From the NCBI GenBank assembly GCA_017630915.1, contig JAGBUH010000053.1, forward strand, positions 1-46,466: a stretch of 46,466 bases of DNA, in the 5' to 3' direction. This DNA is from Clostridia bacterium (GTDB taxonomy: Bacteria > Bacillota > Clostridia > Oscillospirales > CAG-382). Made by a program: the position numbers and the translations under genes. The notes under the pieces were generated by a model. It was given only the letters and a program-made list of their open reading frames with translations, did no database searches and had not been told where the DNA came from. Positions 23,634 through 33,520 of this stretch are shown here, one piece after another (within the stretch, counting starts at the first letter, position 1; every line of letters starts with the position of its first letter).

Positions 23634-24131
23634 TTATTCGCAATCGCAACCGCAGTCACAACCACATTCGTCATCGTCGGCATCGGTCTCTACAAGAGTG
23701 AGAACCTTGCCACAGGAAGGACATTCGAGTTCGTCGATTTCTGCAACGTCACATTCGTCGATATAAACGGGTTCGCCGCAAGCGGGACATTCAAGTTCAA
23801 GACATTCGCAGCAATCACAGCAATCGCAATCATCGTCGCAGTCGTCGCAGTCGCAGTAATCAAAATCATCGTCACAATCACAATCGCAGTCACAATCGCA
23901 ATCGTCATCGCAGCAGTAGAAATCTTCTTCGATTGCGCCGAGGTCTTCGTCGATTTCTTCGATATAATCGTTGAGATTAGCGGTTTCGTCTTCAAGGTCT
24001 TGAATCGAAAGAGCGAGGTCTTCGAGAAGATTAGCCATAGCAGCGAGAACCTTGCCTTCATCTTTGGAAGTGTCGATGGACAAACCGTCCATAAGACCCT
24101 TAATATATGCAGCCTTTTCGGAAACGTTCAT
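23634..24131 (-). CDS. Acidic Cys/Asp-repeat protein with a CxxC...CxxC zinc-ribbon, unknown function
   Basis: 165 aa. A helical acidic N-terminal half (MNVSEKAAYIKGLMDGL...) is followed by CCDDDCDCDCDCDCDDDFDYCDCDDCDDDCDCCDCCEC. Then come CPACG...CPSCG and a C-terminal ECGCDCGCDCE. AAGGAGAA RBS. Confidence 0.8.
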   Translation of the reverse strand: MNVSEKAAYIKGLMDGLSIDTSKDEGKVLAAMANLLEDLALSIQDLEDETANLNDYIEEIDEDLGAIEEDFYCCDDDCDCDCDCDCDDDFDYCDCDDCDDDCDCCDCCECLELECPACGEPVYIDECDVAEIDELECPSCGKVLTLVETDADDDECGCDCGCDCE

Positions 24132-26418: not shown

Positions 26419-28953
26419 TTATGCGGTTTCGATAGATGCCGCTTTTTTGAGGTTGAGTTCTTCAACCGCGTTTTCGCGCATCTTGTATTTGAGTATTTTA
26501 CCCGCCGCGTTCATCGGGAATTCGCTGACGAAGGAAACATATCTCGGAGTTTTGTGTTTCGCCATATTGTCGCGGACATAGGTTTTGATTTCGTCTTCGG
26601 TAATGGTTTCGCCCTCTTTCGGAATGATACAAGCCATTATTTCTTCGCCGTATTGAATGTCGGGCACGCCGATAACCTGAACGTCTTTTACCTTCGGGTG
26701 AGTGTATATAAAGTCTTCGATTTCTTTGGGATAAATATTCTCGCCGCCGCGGATAATCATATCCTTAATACGTCCCGTGATTTTGAAATATCCCTCGGGA
26801 GTGCGGCGCGCAAGGTCGCCCGTGTGAAGCCAACCGTCTTCGTCGATTGCAATTGCGGTCGCTTGGGGCATCTTGTAATAACCCTTCATAATGTTGTAAC
26901 CGCGAGCGACAAATTCGCCGTCAACGTTGTCGGGCAATTCTTCGCCGGTTTCGGGATTGACTATCTTGCATTCGACACCGAACATAGCGCCACCAACCGT
27001 GTTTACACGTGCGTCAAGACTGTCGGTGGTAAGGCTCATGGTGCAACCGGGAGAAGCCTCGGTCTGACCGTAAACTATGGTGATTTCGGTCATATTCATC
27101 TTGTCTACAACGTCTTGCATAACCTTTACGGGACAAGGCGAACCTGCCATGATACCCGTTCTCATATGTGAGAAATCGGTGCTTTCAAAGTTTTCGTTTT
27201 CAAGCAATGCGATAAACATCGTCGGAACACCGTGGAAGCAGGTTATCTTTTCTCTGTTGATGCAATCAAGCGCACGTTTCGGCGAGAAATAGGAAAGCGG
27301 TGACATTGTAACGCCGTGTGTTACCGATGCAGTCATCGCAAGAACCATGCCGAAACAGTGGAACATCGGCACTTGAATCATCATTCTGTCGGCGGAGGAC
27401 AAATCCATCCCGTCGCCGATATTTTTGCCGTTGTTTACTACGTTGTAGTGGGTGAGCATAACACCTTTCGGGAAACCTGTCGTACCCGAAGTGTATTGCA
27501 TATTGCAAACGTCGTGCTTGTTGATAAGCGAAGCGCGACGGTAAACTTCTTCGATAGGAGTCAAATCGGCATATTCAAGCGCTTGCTCCCAAGTAAGACA
27601 ACCCTTTTGTTCGCTTTGAATCGTGATAATATTGCGAAGGAAGGGAAGACGTTTGCTGTAAAGCGGTTTGCCCGCGGTATGCTCGTTCAATTCGGGACAG
27701 AGCTCGTGCATAATCGCATTGTAATCGCTGTCCTTGAATCCGTCACACATAACCAAAGTGTGAGTGTCGGATTGACGGAGCAAATATTCAATTTCGTAAA
27801 TTTTATAAGCGGTATTAACCGTAACCAAAACCGCGCCGATTTTGGTAGTTGCCCAGAAAGCAATATACCATTGAGGAAGGTTGGTTGACCAAACTGCAAC
27901 GTGGTCGCCGCGCTTGACGCCGAGCGAAATGAGCGCGCGAGCGAATTTGTCGACGTCGTCGCGGAATTGAGGATATGTTCTTGTATAATCACATTCGGTG
28001 AAACGGAAAGCATATTGGTCGGGGAATGCTTCGCAAACTCTGTCTAACACTTGGGGGAAAGTCAGGTCGATGAGCATATTCTTTTGCCAAATATATTTAC
28101 CCTGACCGCGCAAGTCGTCGATAAGCATATCAGAACCGAATTTTCTGCCGACGAAACGCGCCATATAGTTTACATAATTAGGGAAGATGATACCCGCGTC
28201 TTGAAGATAAGGCGCCCAGCGTTTTACCCATTCGAGCGAGAGATAACCTTCGAAGTTGATCGAACCCAACGCACGAATCATTTCTTCGATAGGCATATCG
28301 CCTTCGCCCATCATTTTGTAAATTATCTTGCCGTCTTCCTCGATGCTGTCCTTGATGTGCACGTGGGCAATATACATACCGAGGTTTTGAACGGTAGTTT
28401 CGGGCGATTCTTTTGCGAAGCGGTAGGGGTGGTGAATATCCCAAAGCGCCGCGACGTTGTCGCTCGGTACTTTGTCGAGCAAACTTTTAAGACGTGCGGT
28501 ATCGCTGTAAACACCGTTGGTTTCCAAAAGAAGCGTAACGTTTGCTTCTTCCGCCATCGGAAGAATAGATAAAAGTTGAGAAAGCACTTCATCGTCATCG
28601 CCGTCGTCAACAGCGGTAGGACCGTCGTCACCTAAAACGCGGACAAACTTGGTTCCCAGTGCTTTTGCCGCTTTGATGTATTCTGCGACGATGCGTTTGT
28701 TTTCGTCTGCAAGTGCTTTATGTTTAAGACAGCAGTCGGAACTTAAAATCGGAATTTCAAGACCGAGCGATGCGAGTTTCTTAACAGTATCGGCAAGATT
28801 TTCCGCCGCGAAAGGCATATTGTGTTTGTTGTCAAAGATGTCGTCGCCGAGACCGCGCACTTCGATGCCGTCGAAACCGAGGTCGGTTGCCATCGCATAA
28901 ATATCCGAAAAACCGTAACCTGGGCAGGCGAGTGTTGAGAAGGATAACTTCAT
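26419..28953 (-). CDS. Fusion protein: an N-terminal xylose-isomerase-like TIM barrel (sugar phosphate isomerase/epimerase family) joined to a C-terminal AMP-forming acyl-CoA synthetase / adenylating enzyme
   Basis: The N-terminal ~270 aa carry LLLETNG, HVHIKD and LSLEW motifs (AP_endonuc_2-like TIM barrel). The remaining ~570 aa carry the AMP-binding motifs YTSGTTGFPKGVMLTH, GYGQTE-like VYGQTEASP, TGDLARR and IIRGGENIYPKEIE. It is a single uninterrupted ORF with an AAGGAG RBS. Confidence 0.9.
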   Translation of the reverse strand: MKLSFSTLACPGYGFSDIYAMATDLGFDGIEVRGLGDDIFDNKHNMPFAAENLADTVKKLASLGLEIPILSSDCCLKHKALADENKRIVAEYIKAAKALGTKFVRVLGDDGPTAVDDGDDDEVLSQLLSILPMAEEANVTLLLETNGVYSDTARLKSLLDKVPSDNVAALWDIHHPYRFAKESPETTVQNLGMYIAHVHIKDSIEEDGKIIYKMMGEGDMPIEEMIRALGSINFEGYLSLEWVKRWAPYLQDAGIIFPNYVNYMARFVGRKFGSDMLIDDLRGQGKYIWQKNMLIDLTFPQVLDRVCEAFPDQYAFRFTECDYTRTYPQFRDDVDKFARALISLGVKRGDHVAVWSTNLPQWYIAFWATTKIGAVLVTVNTAYKIYEIEYLLRQSDTHTLVMCDGFKDSDYNAIMHELCPELNEHTAGKPLYSKRLPFLRNIITIQSEQKGCLTWEQALEYADLTPIEEVYRRASLINKHDVCNMQYTSGTTGFPKGVMLTHYNVVNNGKNIGDGMDLSSADRMMIQVPMFHCFGMVLAMTASVTHGVTMSPLSYFSPKRALDCINREKITCFHGVPTMFIALLENENFESTDFSHMRTGIMAGSPCPVKVMQDVVDKMNMTEITIVYGQTEASPGCTMSLTTDSLDARVNTVGGAMFGVECKIVNPETGEELPDNVDGEFVARGYNIMKGYYKMPQATAIAIDEDGWLHTGDLARRTPEGYFKITGRIKDMIIRGGENIYPKEIEDFIYTHPKVKDVQVIGVPDIQYGEEIMACIIPKEGETITEDEIKTYVRDNMAKHKTPRYVSFVSEFPMNAAGKILKYKMRENAVEELNLKKAASIETA

Positions 28954-28983
28954 TTTTGTGCTCCTTTTTCTTGGAATATCAAC

Positions 28984-29230
28984 GAAAAAATAAAAAACTC
29001 TATCTACGCAAAAACATAAATAGAGCTTGGGTAAATCAATATTATCATTTCACGCGCCAAACAGCACGTTCTCTTGATAACGGCGAGAAACCCGACCGAA
29101 CCTACTAAAACATTTCGGAACGGCAGCTCAGGGGTGAGTTCACGTATCTTTACACCTGCCGTTTCACACCAACCAACGGCTCTCTGAAAAGTGCGTTTGA
29201 GATAGCTTAGTCCCCATCACAGCTTTTGCT
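28984..29230 (-). promoter_or_regulatory. T-box-like leader (Leu, CUC specifier) with a terminator, upstream of the 844-aa fusion gene
   Basis: The minus strand shows these elements in order. A GUGAUG...CUGA K-turn-like pair. The AGAGAG box (plus 29178-29186). A distal loop GGUGUGA (fits GGUGNRA). GUGAA-CUC-A with the specifier at 29138..29136. An AGUA box. The F-box CCGUUA (29083..29078). An 11-bp hairpin CUCUAUUUAUG/CGUAGAUAGAG followed by UUUUUUAUUUUUU (28984-29025). I did not find the canonical GGGUGGNACCGCG T-box motif. Confidence 0.6.
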
Positions 29231-29236
29231 TTCAAT

Positions 29237-29265
29237 AGTATAATCAAGTGTGTCGGTTCTGTCAA
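29237..29265 (-). promoter_or_regulatory. Sigma-A promoter driving the T-box-like leader
   Basis: The minus strand reads TTGACA (29265-29260), 17-nt spacer, TATACT (29242-29237). Confidence 0.55.
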
Positions 29266-29294
29266 GTGTTTTTTTGTTTTTTGTCGCAAATCTA

Positions 29295-29323
29295 TTGAAA
29301 AAGAGGAAAAAGTGTGATAGAAT
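29295..29323 (+). promoter_or_regulatory. Divergent sigma-A promoter for the oxidoreductase gene
   Basis: TTGAAA (29295-29300), 17-nt spacer, TAGAAT (29318-29323), with TGA upstream (extended -10). Confidence 0.5.
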
Positions 29324-29374
29324 GTGCCTAACTTTAAAACGTAATAAACGTTATTTTATTTGGAGGAACAAACT

Positions 29375-30439
29375 ATGTCCAAAATGAAGATTGCAATCAT
29401 CGGTTGCGGTACTATCGCTAACAGCGCGCACATTCCCGCATATATGAAGAATGAAACGGTAGAAATCAAATATTTCTGCGATATCATCAAATCGAGAGCC
29501 GAAGAAGCGGTTGAAAAATACGGCTGCGGTACCGCTGTTGAAGATTATCACGATATCTTGAACGATCCCGAAATCGAAGCGGTTTCTATCTGTACCCCCA
29601 ATAAGATGCACAGCACCATTACCATCGACTTCCTTAAAGCAGGTAAAAACGTTCTTTGTGAAAAACCTGCCGCAAGAACTCTTTCCGAAGCACTTGAAAT
29701 GCAAAAGGCGCAACACGAAACAGGTAAAATCCTCAACATCGGTGTTGTTAACCGTTTTAACTCTGCCGTTAACCGCCTCCGTGAAATCATTCAATCGGGC
29801 GAACTCGGCGAAGTTTATCACGTATATGTAAGCTTCCGCGCTCACCGTTCCATTCCCGGTCTCGGCGGTGCATTCACCACCAAGTCTATCTCGGGCGGCG
29901 GCGTTCTTATCGACTGGGGCGTTCACTATCTCGATATCGTTATGTACTGCATGGACGATCCCAAACCCCTCACCGTTTCGGCGAAGACCTTCTCCAAACT
30001 CGGTGTTGATATGCCCAACTATGTTTATAACAGCATGTGGTCTGAAATGACCAAAGACGTTAACGGTACTTATGACGTTGACGACTTCGTTACCGGCTTC
30101 GTTCGTACCGAAGGTCCTACCATCACCCTCAACGGCGCATGGGCTCAAAACATCGGTGTTGCTGAAACATATATCGACTTCATCGGTACAAAAGCAGGTA
30201 TCCGTCTTACCTACGGCGGCGATTTCACTCTTTACACCACTTCCTGCAACACTCTCATCGACTTCAAGCCCAAGTTCCAAGCGAGCAACCATTTCGAAAA
30301 CGAAATCAACGCGTTTGTTGATTGCGTAAGAACCGGCGAAAAGCTTCCTTCTCACATCGACAAGGCAATTATCACCGCAACAATGATGCAAGCGATGTAC
30401 GACTCCTCCGAGCAGAACAAAGAAATTACGCTTGCATAA
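29375..30439 (+). CDS. Gfo/Idh/MocA-family NAD(P)-dependent oxidoreductase
   Basis: The Rossmann N-terminus is MSKMKIAIIGCGTIANSAHIPAY, and an EKP motif (LCEKPAA) is present. The start is set at ATG 29375, 9 nt after GGAGG; the track start at 29360 is a TTG. Confidence 0.9.
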   Translation: MSKMKIAIIGCGTIANSAHIPAYMKNETVEIKYFCDIIKSRAEEAVEKYGCGTAVEDYHDILNDPEIEAVSICTPNKMHSTITIDFLKAGKNVLCEKPAARTLSEALEMQKAQHETGKILNIGVVNRFNSAVNRLREIIQSGELGEVYHVYVSFRAHRSIPGLGGAFTTKSISGGGVLIDWGVHYLDIVMYCMDDPKPLTVSAKTFSKLGVDMPNYVYNSMWSEMTKDVNGTYDVDDFVTGFVRTEGPTITLNGAWAQNIGVAETYIDFIGTKAGIRLTYGGDFTLYTTSCNTLIDFKPKFQASNHFENEINAFVDCVRTGEKLPSHIDKAIITATMMQAMYDSSEQNKEITLA

Positions 30440-30863: not shown

Positions 30864-33323
30864 TTACACGTTATAGTTGGAGAATGCAATTCTCTTGATG
30901 AGCAAATAATCTACCGAATCGATTATATCGTTTTCGTCAATATCTGCGGTTAGTCTTTCTTGTTCATTGAGCGTGTAGGTGTTAAAACAATGACGTTTGA
31001 CCAAAAGATAATCCACTGAATCGACAACACCGTCTTCGTTTACATCGCCAAGCGGTATTTCAACAACCGGGGTGTCGGGTGACGCGTCTATTGAACCGTA
31101 AGCTTCAATTTCATTAACAAATGCGAAGTGGTCGGAGAGTATGAATTCAACTTTCAAATATCTTGCAGAACAGTCAAGCGGTATTTCGGTCCAATAACCG
31201 ACGTTTTCAGCTTTTGAAATAGTCATCGTTCCGACCGATTTGCCCCAATTTTCGCCGTCGTTAGAAACGTAAATGTTTATCGCTTCCGGTACACCGATTG
31301 CCCATGACGTGTTGTTGAGCAGATGCATTCTGATTGAATTCAACGCATATTTATCGCCGAGGTTGAAAATTGCATATCCTACTTTGTCGGGCGCGTTGAT
31401 ATCGGAACTACTTGCATTTTCGTGGTGATAGAATGCAAACCAGTTGGAAGTTGCATTGTAATTCAGGTTGGAAAAGGCGTTACCGTCGGTTAAGTTAGCG
31501 TTATAAGTGGATTTAACACCGCAACCCGAAATGTCATATTTTTTATTAAGCAGTATATTTTTTGCGGTGTCTTCATCTTCTTCGTCATCGGGAGGAGTGA
31601 TAGGATCACTTGTGTCATCGTTACTCGTATCCGAACTCGTATCCGAACTTGTGTCTGAACTTGTATCGTCGCTTATGTCGGGCGTTGTTCCTTCTGTGTC
31701 ATTTCTGCCGACCATGGCTTCGCCGCAGAATACAAAATTGTAGGTGCTGTTTATGAATGAGAACTTAACGTATCTTGCAGAAACGGGCTGTGTGACGAGG
31801 TTAATATATGCCGAAATTCCGTCATATTCAAGCATTGGTTGAGCAAGTAATTTAAAATCGCTTCCGTTGTCAGAAATATAAATCTTGATGTCATCCTTCG
31901 GAGCACTGATTCCGGAAGTATTTATGTTACTGAATTGTATCAAGAAGTTGGTTAGTCCCGAAGTGACTTTTCCAAGGTCTATCGTAACGTTCATTCTGCC
32001 GTCTGAATCAAGGAGCGAATTGTGGAACGCGTGCCATTCCGTACCTAACGCTGTTGTGCCGACAACGCCGTCGGTAAGTTCGGTTCCATCGTTGTCTTGA
32101 TAATCAATTGAGCCATCGCTGTAATATGGGGCGGAAGCAACGTAATCTTTTCCGATTGATATCCAATCAACGTCTTCGGGGATTTTGAATCCGCCTTCTC
32201 TGTATCTGTCGATATCACTTTGAGTCAAAGAGCCTTTTGCATATTTATAGGTAAGATCATAAATCGAACGTGCTGTTGATCCTCCGTAACTCCAAGCTGC
32301 GTAATACGCGCCTGTTTTACCGCCTTGGTAGTACATTTTAATCGAATCCATCGCACCGCCGTTCATACAACCTTCGAGATAATCGAGATAGCGGTTGTAA
32401 TATTCGCTGTCGGAAAAAACCTTGTGGTCGAGTTCTATTTCTACACACATTCCAAGGGAATTACAGGAATCTACACAGTTATCAACACGGTTTGCATCTG
32501 CGGTAGTTTGCCAATACATATTCGGTTGCATACAAGCAACGTCGAAACCAAGCGTTTTCCATTTAGAATATCCGTTTGATTGATAGTAGGGAATCCATAT
32601 AAACTTAAAACCCAATGAGTGAAGGTATTCCGAAGCATATTGGAACAGTTTGGTATCTTCCGTACCGAGCGAACCGCTTTGCAGACGTTCTTCGAGCCAA
32701 TAAAAACCGACAAGTTCGAGATTCTCGTATCCGGCTTCTTTATATAAGCGAAGCTGTTCGTCAATAATCCATTTTACCGCATACTGACGGTCGGCATATT
32801 TGTTCATATTTAGGCTTCTGCCGCCCAATGAACCGAATCTCGAACCTGCACTTTTGGCAGGATAAAGAATTGATAAAAACACACCGGCTTTTTTGTCGGG
32901 AGCGTTGAGTTTCGCTTTCGCTTCGCCGAAGGCGGTTTCAAGTGCGTTTACATTGGTATCGGGGTAGAACGTATCTTCGACATAGTCTTCCCAGTCAACA
33001 GCAAGACATGGGTTGGAACTGTTATAGTGCATACTGCCACCCGAAGTGCCGAGTTGAACGCAGGGGAGGAAAAGATAACTGTCAAAGAAAAAGTCTTTGA
33101 TATCTCCGCCGGCATCGTAATACGCAACGTAAGGCATAAGGTCCTGAACGGTATGACGCCCATTGTTAACGCCGTTAGGGTTCCACGTATAAGTCAAGCA
33201 AAGATTTTCATATCCGTTCATATCGGACGGAGAGGGGAATGCCGCGCTGACGCTATTGGGGAAAACCAAGATGATCGCTAAAAGCAGTGTAACAGCTAAT
33301 AAAAGTGATAATGTTTTTCTCAT
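30864..33323 (-). CDS. Secreted multidomain protein: a glycoside-hydrolase-like TIM-barrel region (resembles DUF4855), two discoidin-like modules, an acidic Ser/Thr/Asp linker and a C-terminal dockerin
   Basis: The start is trimmed to ATG 33323 (GGAGG 5 nt upstream), giving the signal peptide MRKTLSLLLAVTLLLAIILVFPNSVSA. N-terminal motifs are FFFDSYLFLP, VFLSILYP, VGFYWLEE and FIWIPYY. The discoidin-like modules carry LTDG ... GISAPKDDIKIYIS ... ARYVKF. The linker is DTSSDTSSDTSSDTS. The dockerin is GDVNEDGVVDSVDYLLVKRHCFNT ... ADIDENDIIDSVDYLLIKR (30864-31052). Confidence 0.88.
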   Translation of the reverse strand: MRKTLSLLLAVTLLLAIILVFPNSVSAAFPSPSDMNGYENLCLTYTWNPNGVNNGRHTVQDLMPYVAYYDAGGDIKDFFFDSYLFLPCVQLGTSGGSMHYNSSNPCLAVDWEDYVEDTFYPDTNVNALETAFGEAKAKLNAPDKKAGVFLSILYPAKSAGSRFGSLGGRSLNMNKYADRQYAVKWIIDEQLRLYKEAGYENLELVGFYWLEERLQSGSLGTEDTKLFQYASEYLHSLGFKFIWIPYYQSNGYSKWKTLGFDVACMQPNMYWQTTADANRVDNCVDSCNSLGMCVEIELDHKVFSDSEYYNRYLDYLEGCMNGGAMDSIKMYYQGGKTGAYYAAWSYGGSTARSIYDLTYKYAKGSLTQSDIDRYREGGFKIPEDVDWISIGKDYVASAPYYSDGSIDYQDNDGTELTDGVVGTTALGTEWHAFHNSLLDSDGRMNVTIDLGKVTSGLTNFLIQFSNINTSGISAPKDDIKIYISDNGSDFKLLAQPMLEYDGISAYINLVTQPVSARYVKFSFINSTYNFVFCGEAMVGRNDTEGTTPDISDDTSSDTSSDTSSDTSNDDTSDPITPPDDEEDEDTAKNILLNKKYDISGCGVKSTYNANLTDGNAFSNLNYNATSNWFAFYHHENASSSDINAPDKVGYAIFNLGDKYALNSIRMHLLNNTSWAIGVPEAINIYVSNDGENWGKSVGTMTISKAENVGYWTEIPLDCSARYLKVEFILSDHFAFVNEIEAYGSIDASPDTPVVEIPLGDVNEDGVVDSVDYLLVKRHCFNTYTLNEQERLTADIDENDIIDSVDYLLIKRIAFSNYNV
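31625..31672. repeat. Imperfect 12-bp tandem repeat (x4) encoding the (SSDT)n linker
   Basis: The four units are TCGTATCCGAAC, TCGTATCCGAAC, TTGTGTCTGAAC and TTGTATCGTCGC. Confidence 0.7.
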
Positions 33324-33520
33324 AAATTCCTCCGTTGCGATTTTGTACATCATAACATAAAAAAATCAAACGCGCAATACGCAATAATTATTTTGTAAAA
33401 AATAACATTTTGTGAATTTTTTTGATTTGTTGTTATGAGCTATCAATAATACGATTCAAAAAAAGCAATCCGTTCAAAAAATGTGTTGGGTTTGAAAAAT
33501 AGATTATGTTCAAAAATTTG

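Follow-up and report, generated by a model that had tools for sequence, protein, structure and literature searches.

A T-box-derived leader without the tRNA discriminator bulge precedes a TIM-barrel/acyl-CoA-ligase fusion gene in Clostridia

The window analysed here, a 46,466-nucleotide stretch of Clostridia bacterium DNA (contig JAGBUH010000053.1), carries on its minus strand a leader region upstream of a gene encoding an 844-residue fusion of a TIM barrel with an acyl-CoA ligase. Judged from its sequence, the leader clearly descends from a class-I T-box, and it probably still acts through tRNA-Leu. The decoding half of the T-box, with a leucine specifier codon, has been kept under selection, and the discriminator half has been lost; the bulge sequence UGGNACC is absent from 18 distinct leaders of several lineages, including that of the window. 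Two complementarities, one between the mutated T-box strand and the stem IIA/B pseudoknot and one between the 5' tail and the apex of the terminator, are statistically tied to this loss. We propose, with somewhat less than even confidence, that the leader may be a tRNA-Leu (GAG)-responsive transcription attenuator that retains its decoding half and has a rebuilt discriminator half, a pseudoknot toggle being combined with antitermination through pairing of tail and apex.

Relationship to class-I T-boxes

Coordinates are window positions; the leader lies on the minus strand, with positions 29265 to 28954 read as a single unit. It is designated WIN, and fetched loci with relatives are numbered L001 to L127. 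A default Rfam scan of the whole window reported no match, because the score of the leader against the T-box model RF00230 (79.1 bits) is below the gathering score of 93 bits. A permissive scan of positions 28900-29400 identified the match with E = 1.4e-17 over model positions 1-219, the full length of the model. The alignment was strong from the kink-turn (K-turn) through the F-box, with high posterior probability over stem I, and nearly empty over the antiterminator; the last helix of the model was represented in the window by only two base pairs (bp) flanking a 20-nucleotide (nt) insert. Canonical leaders of orthologous genes scored 117.2 bits (L046), 109.3 bits (L012) and 108.1 bits (L007), and leaders lacking the bulge 75.2 bits (L083), 70.8 bits (L082), 70.3 bits (L087), 68.5 bits (L001) and 52.3 bits (L096). 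The shortfall of 30-40 bits corresponds to the discriminator half of RF00230. Since canonical orthologous leaders reach 108-117 bits, the sub-threshold score reflects the loss of that half and not chance. A sequence-only reading of the window had described the element as T-box-like and named an RF00230 hit above threshold as the check on this assignment; the score does fall short of the threshold, but the resemblance goes beyond chance. The idea that there is no T-box kinship at all, to which the low score and the silent default scan lend some colour, has a negligible probability and is refuted by the E-value with full model coverage, by orthologous leaders above the threshold and by covariation within the bulge-less clade.

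The leader contains the stem I elements with the specifier codon and its following purine, stem II, and the stem IIA/B pseudoknot with its F-box. It lacks stem III with the purine string and the UGGN bulge between A1 and A2; a terminator is present and the canonical antiterminator is absent. The features, in the order of transcription, are as follows.

29260-29265, minus strand: -35 hexamer TTGACA (promoter scan; a similar TTGACA...TATAAT-like pair lies upstream of orthologous leaders)
29237-29242, minus strand: -10 hexamer TATACT (promoter scan)
29222-29229, minus strand: A-rich 5' tail GCAAAAGC, the last GC of which is the basal pair of stem I
29126-29223, minus strand: stem I with K-turn, specifier loop, AG bulge and distal loop (Rfam alignment, pair counts)
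29180-29185, minus strand: AG bulge AGAGAG of stem I
29164-29174, minus strand: distal loop GGUUGGUGUGA of stem I
29136-29138, minus strand: specifier CUC (Leu) in the context GAA-CUC-A followed by CCCC, the A being the conserved purine (Rfam alignment)
29096-29123, minus strand: stem II with the AGUA (S-turn) motif (Rfam alignment, pair-count helix 6)
29070-29094, minus strand: stem IIA/B pseudoknot CGGGUUUCUCGCCGUUAUCAAGAGA (Rfam alignment, pair-count helices 7 and 8)
29078-29083, minus strand: F-box CCGUUA, within the pseudoknot (Rfam alignment)
29052-29069, minus strand: hairpin H1, ACGUGCU-GUUU-GGCGCGU (pair-count helix 9)
29029-29047, minus strand: conserved strand UGAUAAUAUUGAUUUACCC, the positional remnant of the T-box sequence and proposed anti-pseudoknot strand
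28995-29028, minus strand: intrinsic terminator hairpin (terminator scan, RNAfold)
29008-29015, minus strand: terminator apex GUUUUUGC, complementary to the 5' tail
28985-28997, minus strand: U tract UUUUUUAUUUUUU (sequence, terminator scan)
28961-28966, minus strand: ribosome-binding site AAGGAG, with no sequestration predicted by folding
26419-28953, minus strand: open reading frame (ORF) of the 844-residue TIM-barrel/acyl-CoA-ligase fusion (Pfam and NCBIfam scans)

The two promoter hexamers, separated by a 17-nt spacer, match the consensus at 11 of 12 positions, and transcription is expected to start at about 29229-29231. The K-turn side of stem I reads GCUGUGAUGGGG...CCCCUGAGC. H1 is an insertion relative to the Rfam model and is kept in the canonical orthologous leaders L046 and L012. 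The terminator comprises 15 pairs in the scan, G-U pairs included, and 12 core pairs in RNAfold. Promoter, stem I and stem II hallmarks, F-box and terminator were all found where the sequence-only reading had placed them on the minus strand; only the 11 bp that it gave for the hairpin differ from both counts. No tRNA genes were found in the window, and no tRNA-Leu in the 30 related loci scanned.

The AUG of AUGAUAAU was rejected as the start of a leader peptide, since this codon is missing in L083 and L089 and the stop positions differ. An internal promoter or a Fur-like or CodY-like site at TGATAATATTGAT was also discarded; a check by eye found no acceptable -35 and no palindrome there, and the conservation of this segment is explained by its complementarity to the F-box.

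Leucine specificity and distribution of the leader family

Loci were drawn from 80 genomic loci encoding fusion relatives (L001-L080, the top 80 of at least 598), nine loci with close relatives of the window gene (L081-L089) and 38 metagenomic loci picked by the common pseudoknot/F-box core CGGGWTTCTCRCCGTTATCA (L090-L127). An nhmmer profile of the decoding domain detected 86 leaders across them. The specifier in every leader read was CUC followed by a purine and CC, with the synonymous CUG in L014, L016 and L020. The same leader family occurs, as a canonical T-box with CUC, upstream of leuA-type (2-isopropylmalate synthase-like) genes in L090, L091, L106 and L125. The bulge of canonical leaders reads UGGU, and A73 is the usual discriminator base of bacterial tRNA-Leu. 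Based on the CUC and CUG specifiers, the leuA-type targets and a canonical UGGU that fits A73, the leucine specificity of the leader family appears secure, as the sequence-only reading had supposed from the CUC of the window, and the cognate tRNA of the window leader is proposed to be tRNA-Leu with anticodon GAG. The pseudoknot core of the window is identical to that of canonical Leu T-boxes and retrieves such T-boxes from metagenomes.

Among 103 distinct full-length orthologs, each searched for a leader within 450 nt, leaders were recovered upstream of 66. The orthologs were sorted as follows.

Canonical T-box (CAAnnAGAGUGGUACCGCGG...CUUUCGUCUCU): 45 orthologs
Bulge-less leader: 19 orthologs
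Partial leader match, type unclear: 1 ortholog
No leader within 450 nt: 37 orthologs

L086 was sorted as canonical through a TGGNACC match within the coding region and belongs to the bulge-less group.

Loss of the discriminator and maintenance of the decoding domain

The bulge-less set consists of 18 distinct leaders (WIN, L001, L081, L082, L083, L085, L086, L087, L089, L093, L095, L096, L110, L122, L041, L098, L102 and L112), of which L098, L102 and L112 have differing 3' domains. In the window leader there is no UGGNACC and no UGGN in a bulge context, and the sole UGG 3' of the pseudoknot sits in a hairpin loop and stem (GUUUGGCG). No UGG occurs downstream of H1 in 17 of the 18 leaders. The absence of a recognisable T-box 14-mer and UGGN bulge, remarked on earlier as an oddity of the window, is real and common to a set of relatives.

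In canonical orthologs the stem III region reads AAGUGG-hairpin-CAA, whereas in the window H1 is followed directly by the mutated strand. Aligning this strand in L046 (AAUAAGAG, UGGU--ACC, GCGG) and in the window (GAUAAUAU, UGAUUUACC, CAAG) shows G-to-U or G-to-A changes that destroy the A1 strand (GAG to UAU) and the UGGU, together with deletion of the A2 hairpin. The former T-box sequence AAGAG-UGGU-ACC has become AAUAU-UGAU(UU)ACC, so that no pairing with the NCCA 3' end of the tRNA is possible.

Covariation was counted in an alignment (A2) of 15 bulge-less leaders, with partner columns slid by 1-3 positions and 500 shuffles as controls. Over the decoding structure and H1, 91.7% of cells were paired, against 37-50% with slid partners, and 21 of 42 pairs had changed on both sides; none of the 500 shuffles reached the observed values. 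Stem I (helices 1-5) was 83-100% paired with compensatory changes in most pairs, the pseudoknot (helices 7 and 8) 95-100% paired, and H1 (helix 9) 97% paired with compensatory changes in four of seven pairs. Stem I covariation in homologous leaders, proposed beforehand as a check, was therefore observed. As compensatory changes persist within the bulge-less set, the decoding domain is under selection and has not decayed. On a rough neighbour-joining protein tree the bulge-less forms comprise the WIN clade, L041, L087/L093, the L098 group, L102 and L112 (nested among canonical forms). Because they are scattered over this tree, the bulge seems to have been lost more than once with stem I retained.

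One ortholog has no leader (L084:1060-1500); its protein is 84% identical and falls within the WIN/bulge-less clade on the tree, stem I and terminator are absent, and a TTGACA/TATATACT-like promoter precedes the start codon by about 90 nt. A contig bearing a bulge-less Leu leader, L094, carries a second T-box-like leader (L094:323-542, minus strand; 63.4 bits) apparently with AUC (Ile) as its specifier, with helices A1 (GAG/CUC) and A2, and with a terminator that overlaps. Its bulge, UGGUAUA, is unusual in having AUA in place of ACC, and the ORF downstream starts MEQTKLIAKRLKWARENLEITVAEMASVCG and looks like a helix-turn-helix regulator. Since this second leader has a UGGU bulge, hosts of bulge-less leaders still use T-boxes that read NCCA.

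Complementarities that accompany bulge loss

The mutated T-box strand of the window is complementary to the pseudoknot strand in the blocks GUUAUCA/UGAUAAU, UCG/UGA and GGGU/ACCC. Pairing was evaluated with RNAduplex, by the same procedure for all leaders, against shuffled controls and with a cutoff fraction of <= 0.05. The window duplex with positions 29075-29094 had an energy of -13.1 kcal/mol and a z-score (z) of -4.0, with 0 of 400 shuffles as good, and the corresponding helix appeared in the minimum-free-energy RNAfold structure and in the RNAalifold consensus. Better pairing than in shuffles was obtained for 14 of the 18 bulge-less leaders (mean z = -2.87) and for none of 36 canonical leaders (mean z = +0.47). 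Classical covariation is impossible for this helix because the pseudoknot strand is invariant. Substitutions compatible with pairing were seen, from ACCC to GCCC (giving a U-G pair) and from ACCC to AUCCG (giving a G-U pair and a new C-G pair), and other registers occur in L085 (CGGG/CCCG), L096 (GUUUC/GAAAC and CGG/CCG) and L098 (CGUUA/UAACG and GGG/CCC). The complementarity is statistically tied to bulge loss, and an anti-pseudoknot helix would be its expected product.

The 5' tail GCAAAAGC can pair with the terminator apex GUUUUUGC over 8 bp (-8.6 to -9.8 kcal/mol, z = -3.3), and the apex is the best site for the tail in the whole window leader. It is the single best site of the tail in 13 of 18 bulge-less leaders, compared with 4 of 44 canonical ones (Fisher's exact p = 1.6e-6). 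In L102, an independent lineage, a differing tail UCUUAAAUGC is matched by the loop GCAUUUGAGG over 10 bp (z = -7.2), with the compensatory AAAUGC/GCAUUU. The positions after the basal GC change in step, being GCAU/AUGC in L087, L093 and L096 and GCAA/UUGC in L086 and L110. A strict column count gave 88% of cells paired, against 36-75% with slid partners; as this margin is modest, the case for the tail-apex helix rests mainly on its association with bulge loss and on L102. By folding energy, a structure forced to contain the helix lies 1.2 to 14.6 kcal/mol above the terminator state, a gap as would be expected between a ligand-dependent antiterminator and its terminator. This complementarity, too, is statistically tied to loss of the bulge, and the helix itself is a predicted one.

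L112:8650-8940 has neither an anti-pseudoknot strand nor tail-apex complementarity. There the pseudoknot 3' strand and the H1 5' arm can pair with the terminator 5' arm (CAGGAG..GGUAU with AUACC.UCCUG, z = -2.45), which may be a third way of making up for the lost T-box bulge.

Other candidate partners of the terminator fared less well. The competitor helix GUUUGG/CCAAGC pointed out in the sequence-only reading exists (6 bp, -7.2 kcal/mol) but does not surpass shuffled controls (z = +0.23). An antiterminator made of the IIB 3' strand and H1 5' arm (AGAGCGCG...) with the terminator 5' arm was striking by eye in L081, L082, L089 and L112 and was rejected at a mean z of -0.6; it would also be sterically implausible alongside the anti-pseudoknot helix because the linker is only 3 nt.

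Proposed mechanism and alternatives

The proposed attenuator would work as follows. With tRNA-Leu present, its binding to stem I and stem II would hold the pseudoknot closed, and the 5' tail would pair with the tip and loop of the terminator to give a P1-like closing helix. This helix would block nucleation of the terminator hairpin and allow read-through into the ligase-fusion gene. With tRNA absent, the mutated T-box strand would invade the pseudoknot to form a long helix capped by H1, the decoding domain would open, and the weaker tail-apex helix would lose to the terminator, so that transcription would stop. The pseudoknot is needed for tRNA binding; its deletion weakens binding by about 1,200-fold, of which 200-fold is regained when a plain hairpin is substituted (PMC7583486). 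Read-through in the presence of tRNA is assigned only because canonical orthologous leaders of the same gene switch in that direction. Charging of the tRNA would either not be read or be read only indirectly, for example, and speculatively, through sequestration of charged tRNA by EF-Tu.

Several observations weigh against this mechanism. H1 plus terminator was the outcome of all constrained folds and RNAalifold structures, whether the pseudoknot was blocked or left free and whether the terminator 3' arm was included or not; since plain thermodynamic folding predicts termination in all states, a switch, if any, would be kinetic or stabilised by tertiary structure. Tail-apex covariation is thin, with one double and three one-sided changes and 15 of 500 shuffles as good, and the partners, a tail rich in A and a loop rich in U, are of low complexity. 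Pairing of tail and apex takes up the GC at the base of stem I, along with K-turn loop bases in some lineages, and could thus compete with the tRNA-binding fold instead of cooperating with it. A good tail-apex helix is absent in L041 and L112, and an anti-pseudoknot strand in L102 and L112. The bulge-less sequences are also akin to one another and make up about six lineages, so that there are fewer independent events than counts by sequence imply.

A switch of opposite polarity is a serious competitor, since the tail-apex pairing draws on the basal GC of stem I. The same two helices would then act in reverse, tRNA locking the stem I base, the K-turn and the pseudoknot, which would make the tail and AGAG-type strands unavailable and leave the terminator to form, and the tRNA-free leader pairing tail with apex and being read through. 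It is in keeping with such a scheme that the helix includes the basal GC in all lineages and is formally exclusive with the 2-bp C-stem, that it also takes two K-turn loop bases in L086, L087, L093, L096 and L110, and that all complements of the terminator 5' arm (GCUCU) are AGAGC-type motifs inside tRNA-binding elements. Canonical T-boxes, which are on with uncharged tRNA-Leu, however, precede orthologs whose proteins are 66-72% identical among the fetched loci and whose leaders have the same specifier, a reversal for the same enzyme being unlikely, and the IIB/H1 strand, as noted above, does not overall pair with the terminator arm better than expected by chance. We give this inverse logic a small chance. 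A similarly small chance attaches to a disabled switch, in which the leader, having lost its discriminator, would be a constitutive leaky attenuator whose decoding domain persists for another reason or by inertia, the complementarities having no regulatory function. The failure of folding to predict a thermodynamic antiterminator would fit, as would L084, where the entire leader has been dropped and only a promoter remains, making the leader dispensable in at least one lineage. Compensatory changes nevertheless keep stem I, stem II and H1 while the proteins diverge to about 73% identity, the specifier stays CUC and the terminator is retained; two new complementarities arise specifically at bulge loss, and a strong unregulated terminator before a highly conserved enzyme should be lost.

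A cryptic acceptor site, such as UGAU at 29044-29047 or 29035-29038 or some other site, through which the leader would go on binding the 3' end of the tRNA and sensing its charge, is very unlikely. The strand is indeed homologous in position to the T-box bulge (UGAUUUACC for UGGUACC), but in a 4-bp helix with UGAU the A would face C74 as an A-C mismatch, the A1 strand (GAG to UAU) has been lost, as have helix A2 and stem III together with the purine string, and UGG is missing beyond H1 from all but one bulge-less leader. An acceptor site in the H1 loop (UGGC/UGGG) was rejected separately: the motif is not conserved (CGGC in L086, none in L087, L093 and L096) and is partly paired, and it would mismatch the A73 expected of bacterial tRNA-Leu. 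Beyond the attenuator proposed for the window, we suggest only tentatively, considering it rather doubtful, that these leaders may constitute a T-box-derived class of tRNA riboswitch not recognised before, which would read tRNA identity or occupancy only, through a pseudoknot/anti-pseudoknot toggle and a P1-like tail-apex helix, and which would have arisen repeatedly before one Leu-regulated enzyme in Clostridia.

The regulated gene and its neighbourhood

Residues 22-245 of the fusion protein form a xylose-isomerase-like TIM barrel (PF01261) and residues 304-819 an AMP-binding acyl-CoA ligase (PF00501 and PF13193), Pfam and NCBIfam scans thus bearing out the unusual TIM-barrel/adenylating-enzyme target recognised in the sequence-only reading. 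The best NCBIfam model was PRK12583, with a match below the model cutoff, and related solved structures are generic acyl- or aryl-CoA ligases that cover the C-terminal part only. The fusion is widespread and well conserved in Clostridia: at least 8,000 scored candidates all had E <= 1e-50, the 120 best being 71-100% identical to the query, and relatives occur at no fewer than 598 genomic loci, of which the top 80 have 66-91% identity. No conserved operon partner, ferredoxin-oxidoreductase included, was found beside the fusion gene in the fetched loci beyond clade-specific synteny. A role in supplying leucine fits the Leu T-box, the kinship with leuA leaders and the ligase domain; activation of isovalerate for reductive carboxylation, the route suggested in that reading, would suit a Leu-starvation regulon but is speculation.

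A divergent oxidoreductase gene of the GFO/IDH/MocA family (29360-30439, plus strand) adjoins the fusion gene throughout L001 and L081-L088, and the shared intergenic region contains a promoter-like TTGAAA-17-TAGAAT with an extended -10 at 29295-29323 on the plus strand. In L110:357-1307 (minus strand), a WIN-type bulge-less leader has the usual divergent oxidoreductase upstream and, downstream, a 244-residue ORF of no recognised family in place of the ligase fusion; on this 1.7 kb contig the arrangement could reflect a rearrangement, an insertion or an assembly chimera. Elsewhere in the window, a 165-residue ORF (23634-24131, minus strand) is extremely rich in Cys and Asp in its middle and C-terminus (CDCDCDCDCDDDFDYCDCDDCDDDCDCCDCCE...GCDCGCDCE) and has a metal-binding or low-complexity look, and positions 30864-33353 (minus strand) encode an 829-residue secreted protein with DUF4855, F5/8 type C and type I dockerin domains, suggestive of a cellulosome-bearing organism of the Ruminococcaceae/Oscillospiraceae.

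Relation to known systems

T-boxes serve as the textbook case of an RNA that recognises a tRNA and also checks whether it is charged. According to a 2020 review, every known T-box invariably has UGGN at the bulge edge, and in the literature searched we found no discriminator-less T-box and no acyl-CoA ligase as the target of a Leu T-box. Bulge-less leaders with a selected decoding domain and a terminator raise the question whether T-box regulation can proceed without readout of aminoacylation, and how it would be coupled to termination. Genome scans at the Rfam gathering score miss such leaders. The leaders also place the fusion enzyme in the leucine-starvation regulon of many Clostridia, a lead to its function, possibly in salvage of branched-chain acids into leucine.

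The proposed mechanism resembles that of P1-closed metabolite riboswitches (purine, thiamine pyrophosphate), in which the 5' end pairs with a 3' strand otherwise used by the terminator, the helix being stabilised by a ligand-organised multi-helix junction. The likeness is functional only, with no homology implied; in the window the ligand would be a whole tRNA, and the 3' strand is the terminator apex and not the base of the 5' arm. Among T-boxes, the glyQS type is likewise a natural class that has dropped a whole module and still functions, but there stem II and the pseudoknot are gone and the discriminator with UGGN is kept, whereas the window leader has lost the opposite half. The translational ileS T-boxes of actinobacteria share with it a changed expression platform; they keep the discriminator with UGGN and replace the terminator by Shine-Dalgarno sequestration, whereas the window leader keeps the terminator and has lost the discriminator. 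With canonical class-I RF00230 leaders, such as the CUC-specifier Leu T-boxes that the sequence-only reading cites for Bacillus leuS and ilv-leu and the leaders of this gene in other Clostridia (L046, L007 and L012), it has in common the stem I set, stem II, the IIA/B pseudoknot with the F-box, the terminator and the Leu specifier. It differs from them in having no stem III, purine string, 7-nt UGGNACC bulge, A1/A2 antiterminator or canonical alternative partner for the terminator 5' arm, and in having gained the anti-pseudoknot strand and the complementarity between 5' tail and terminator apex.

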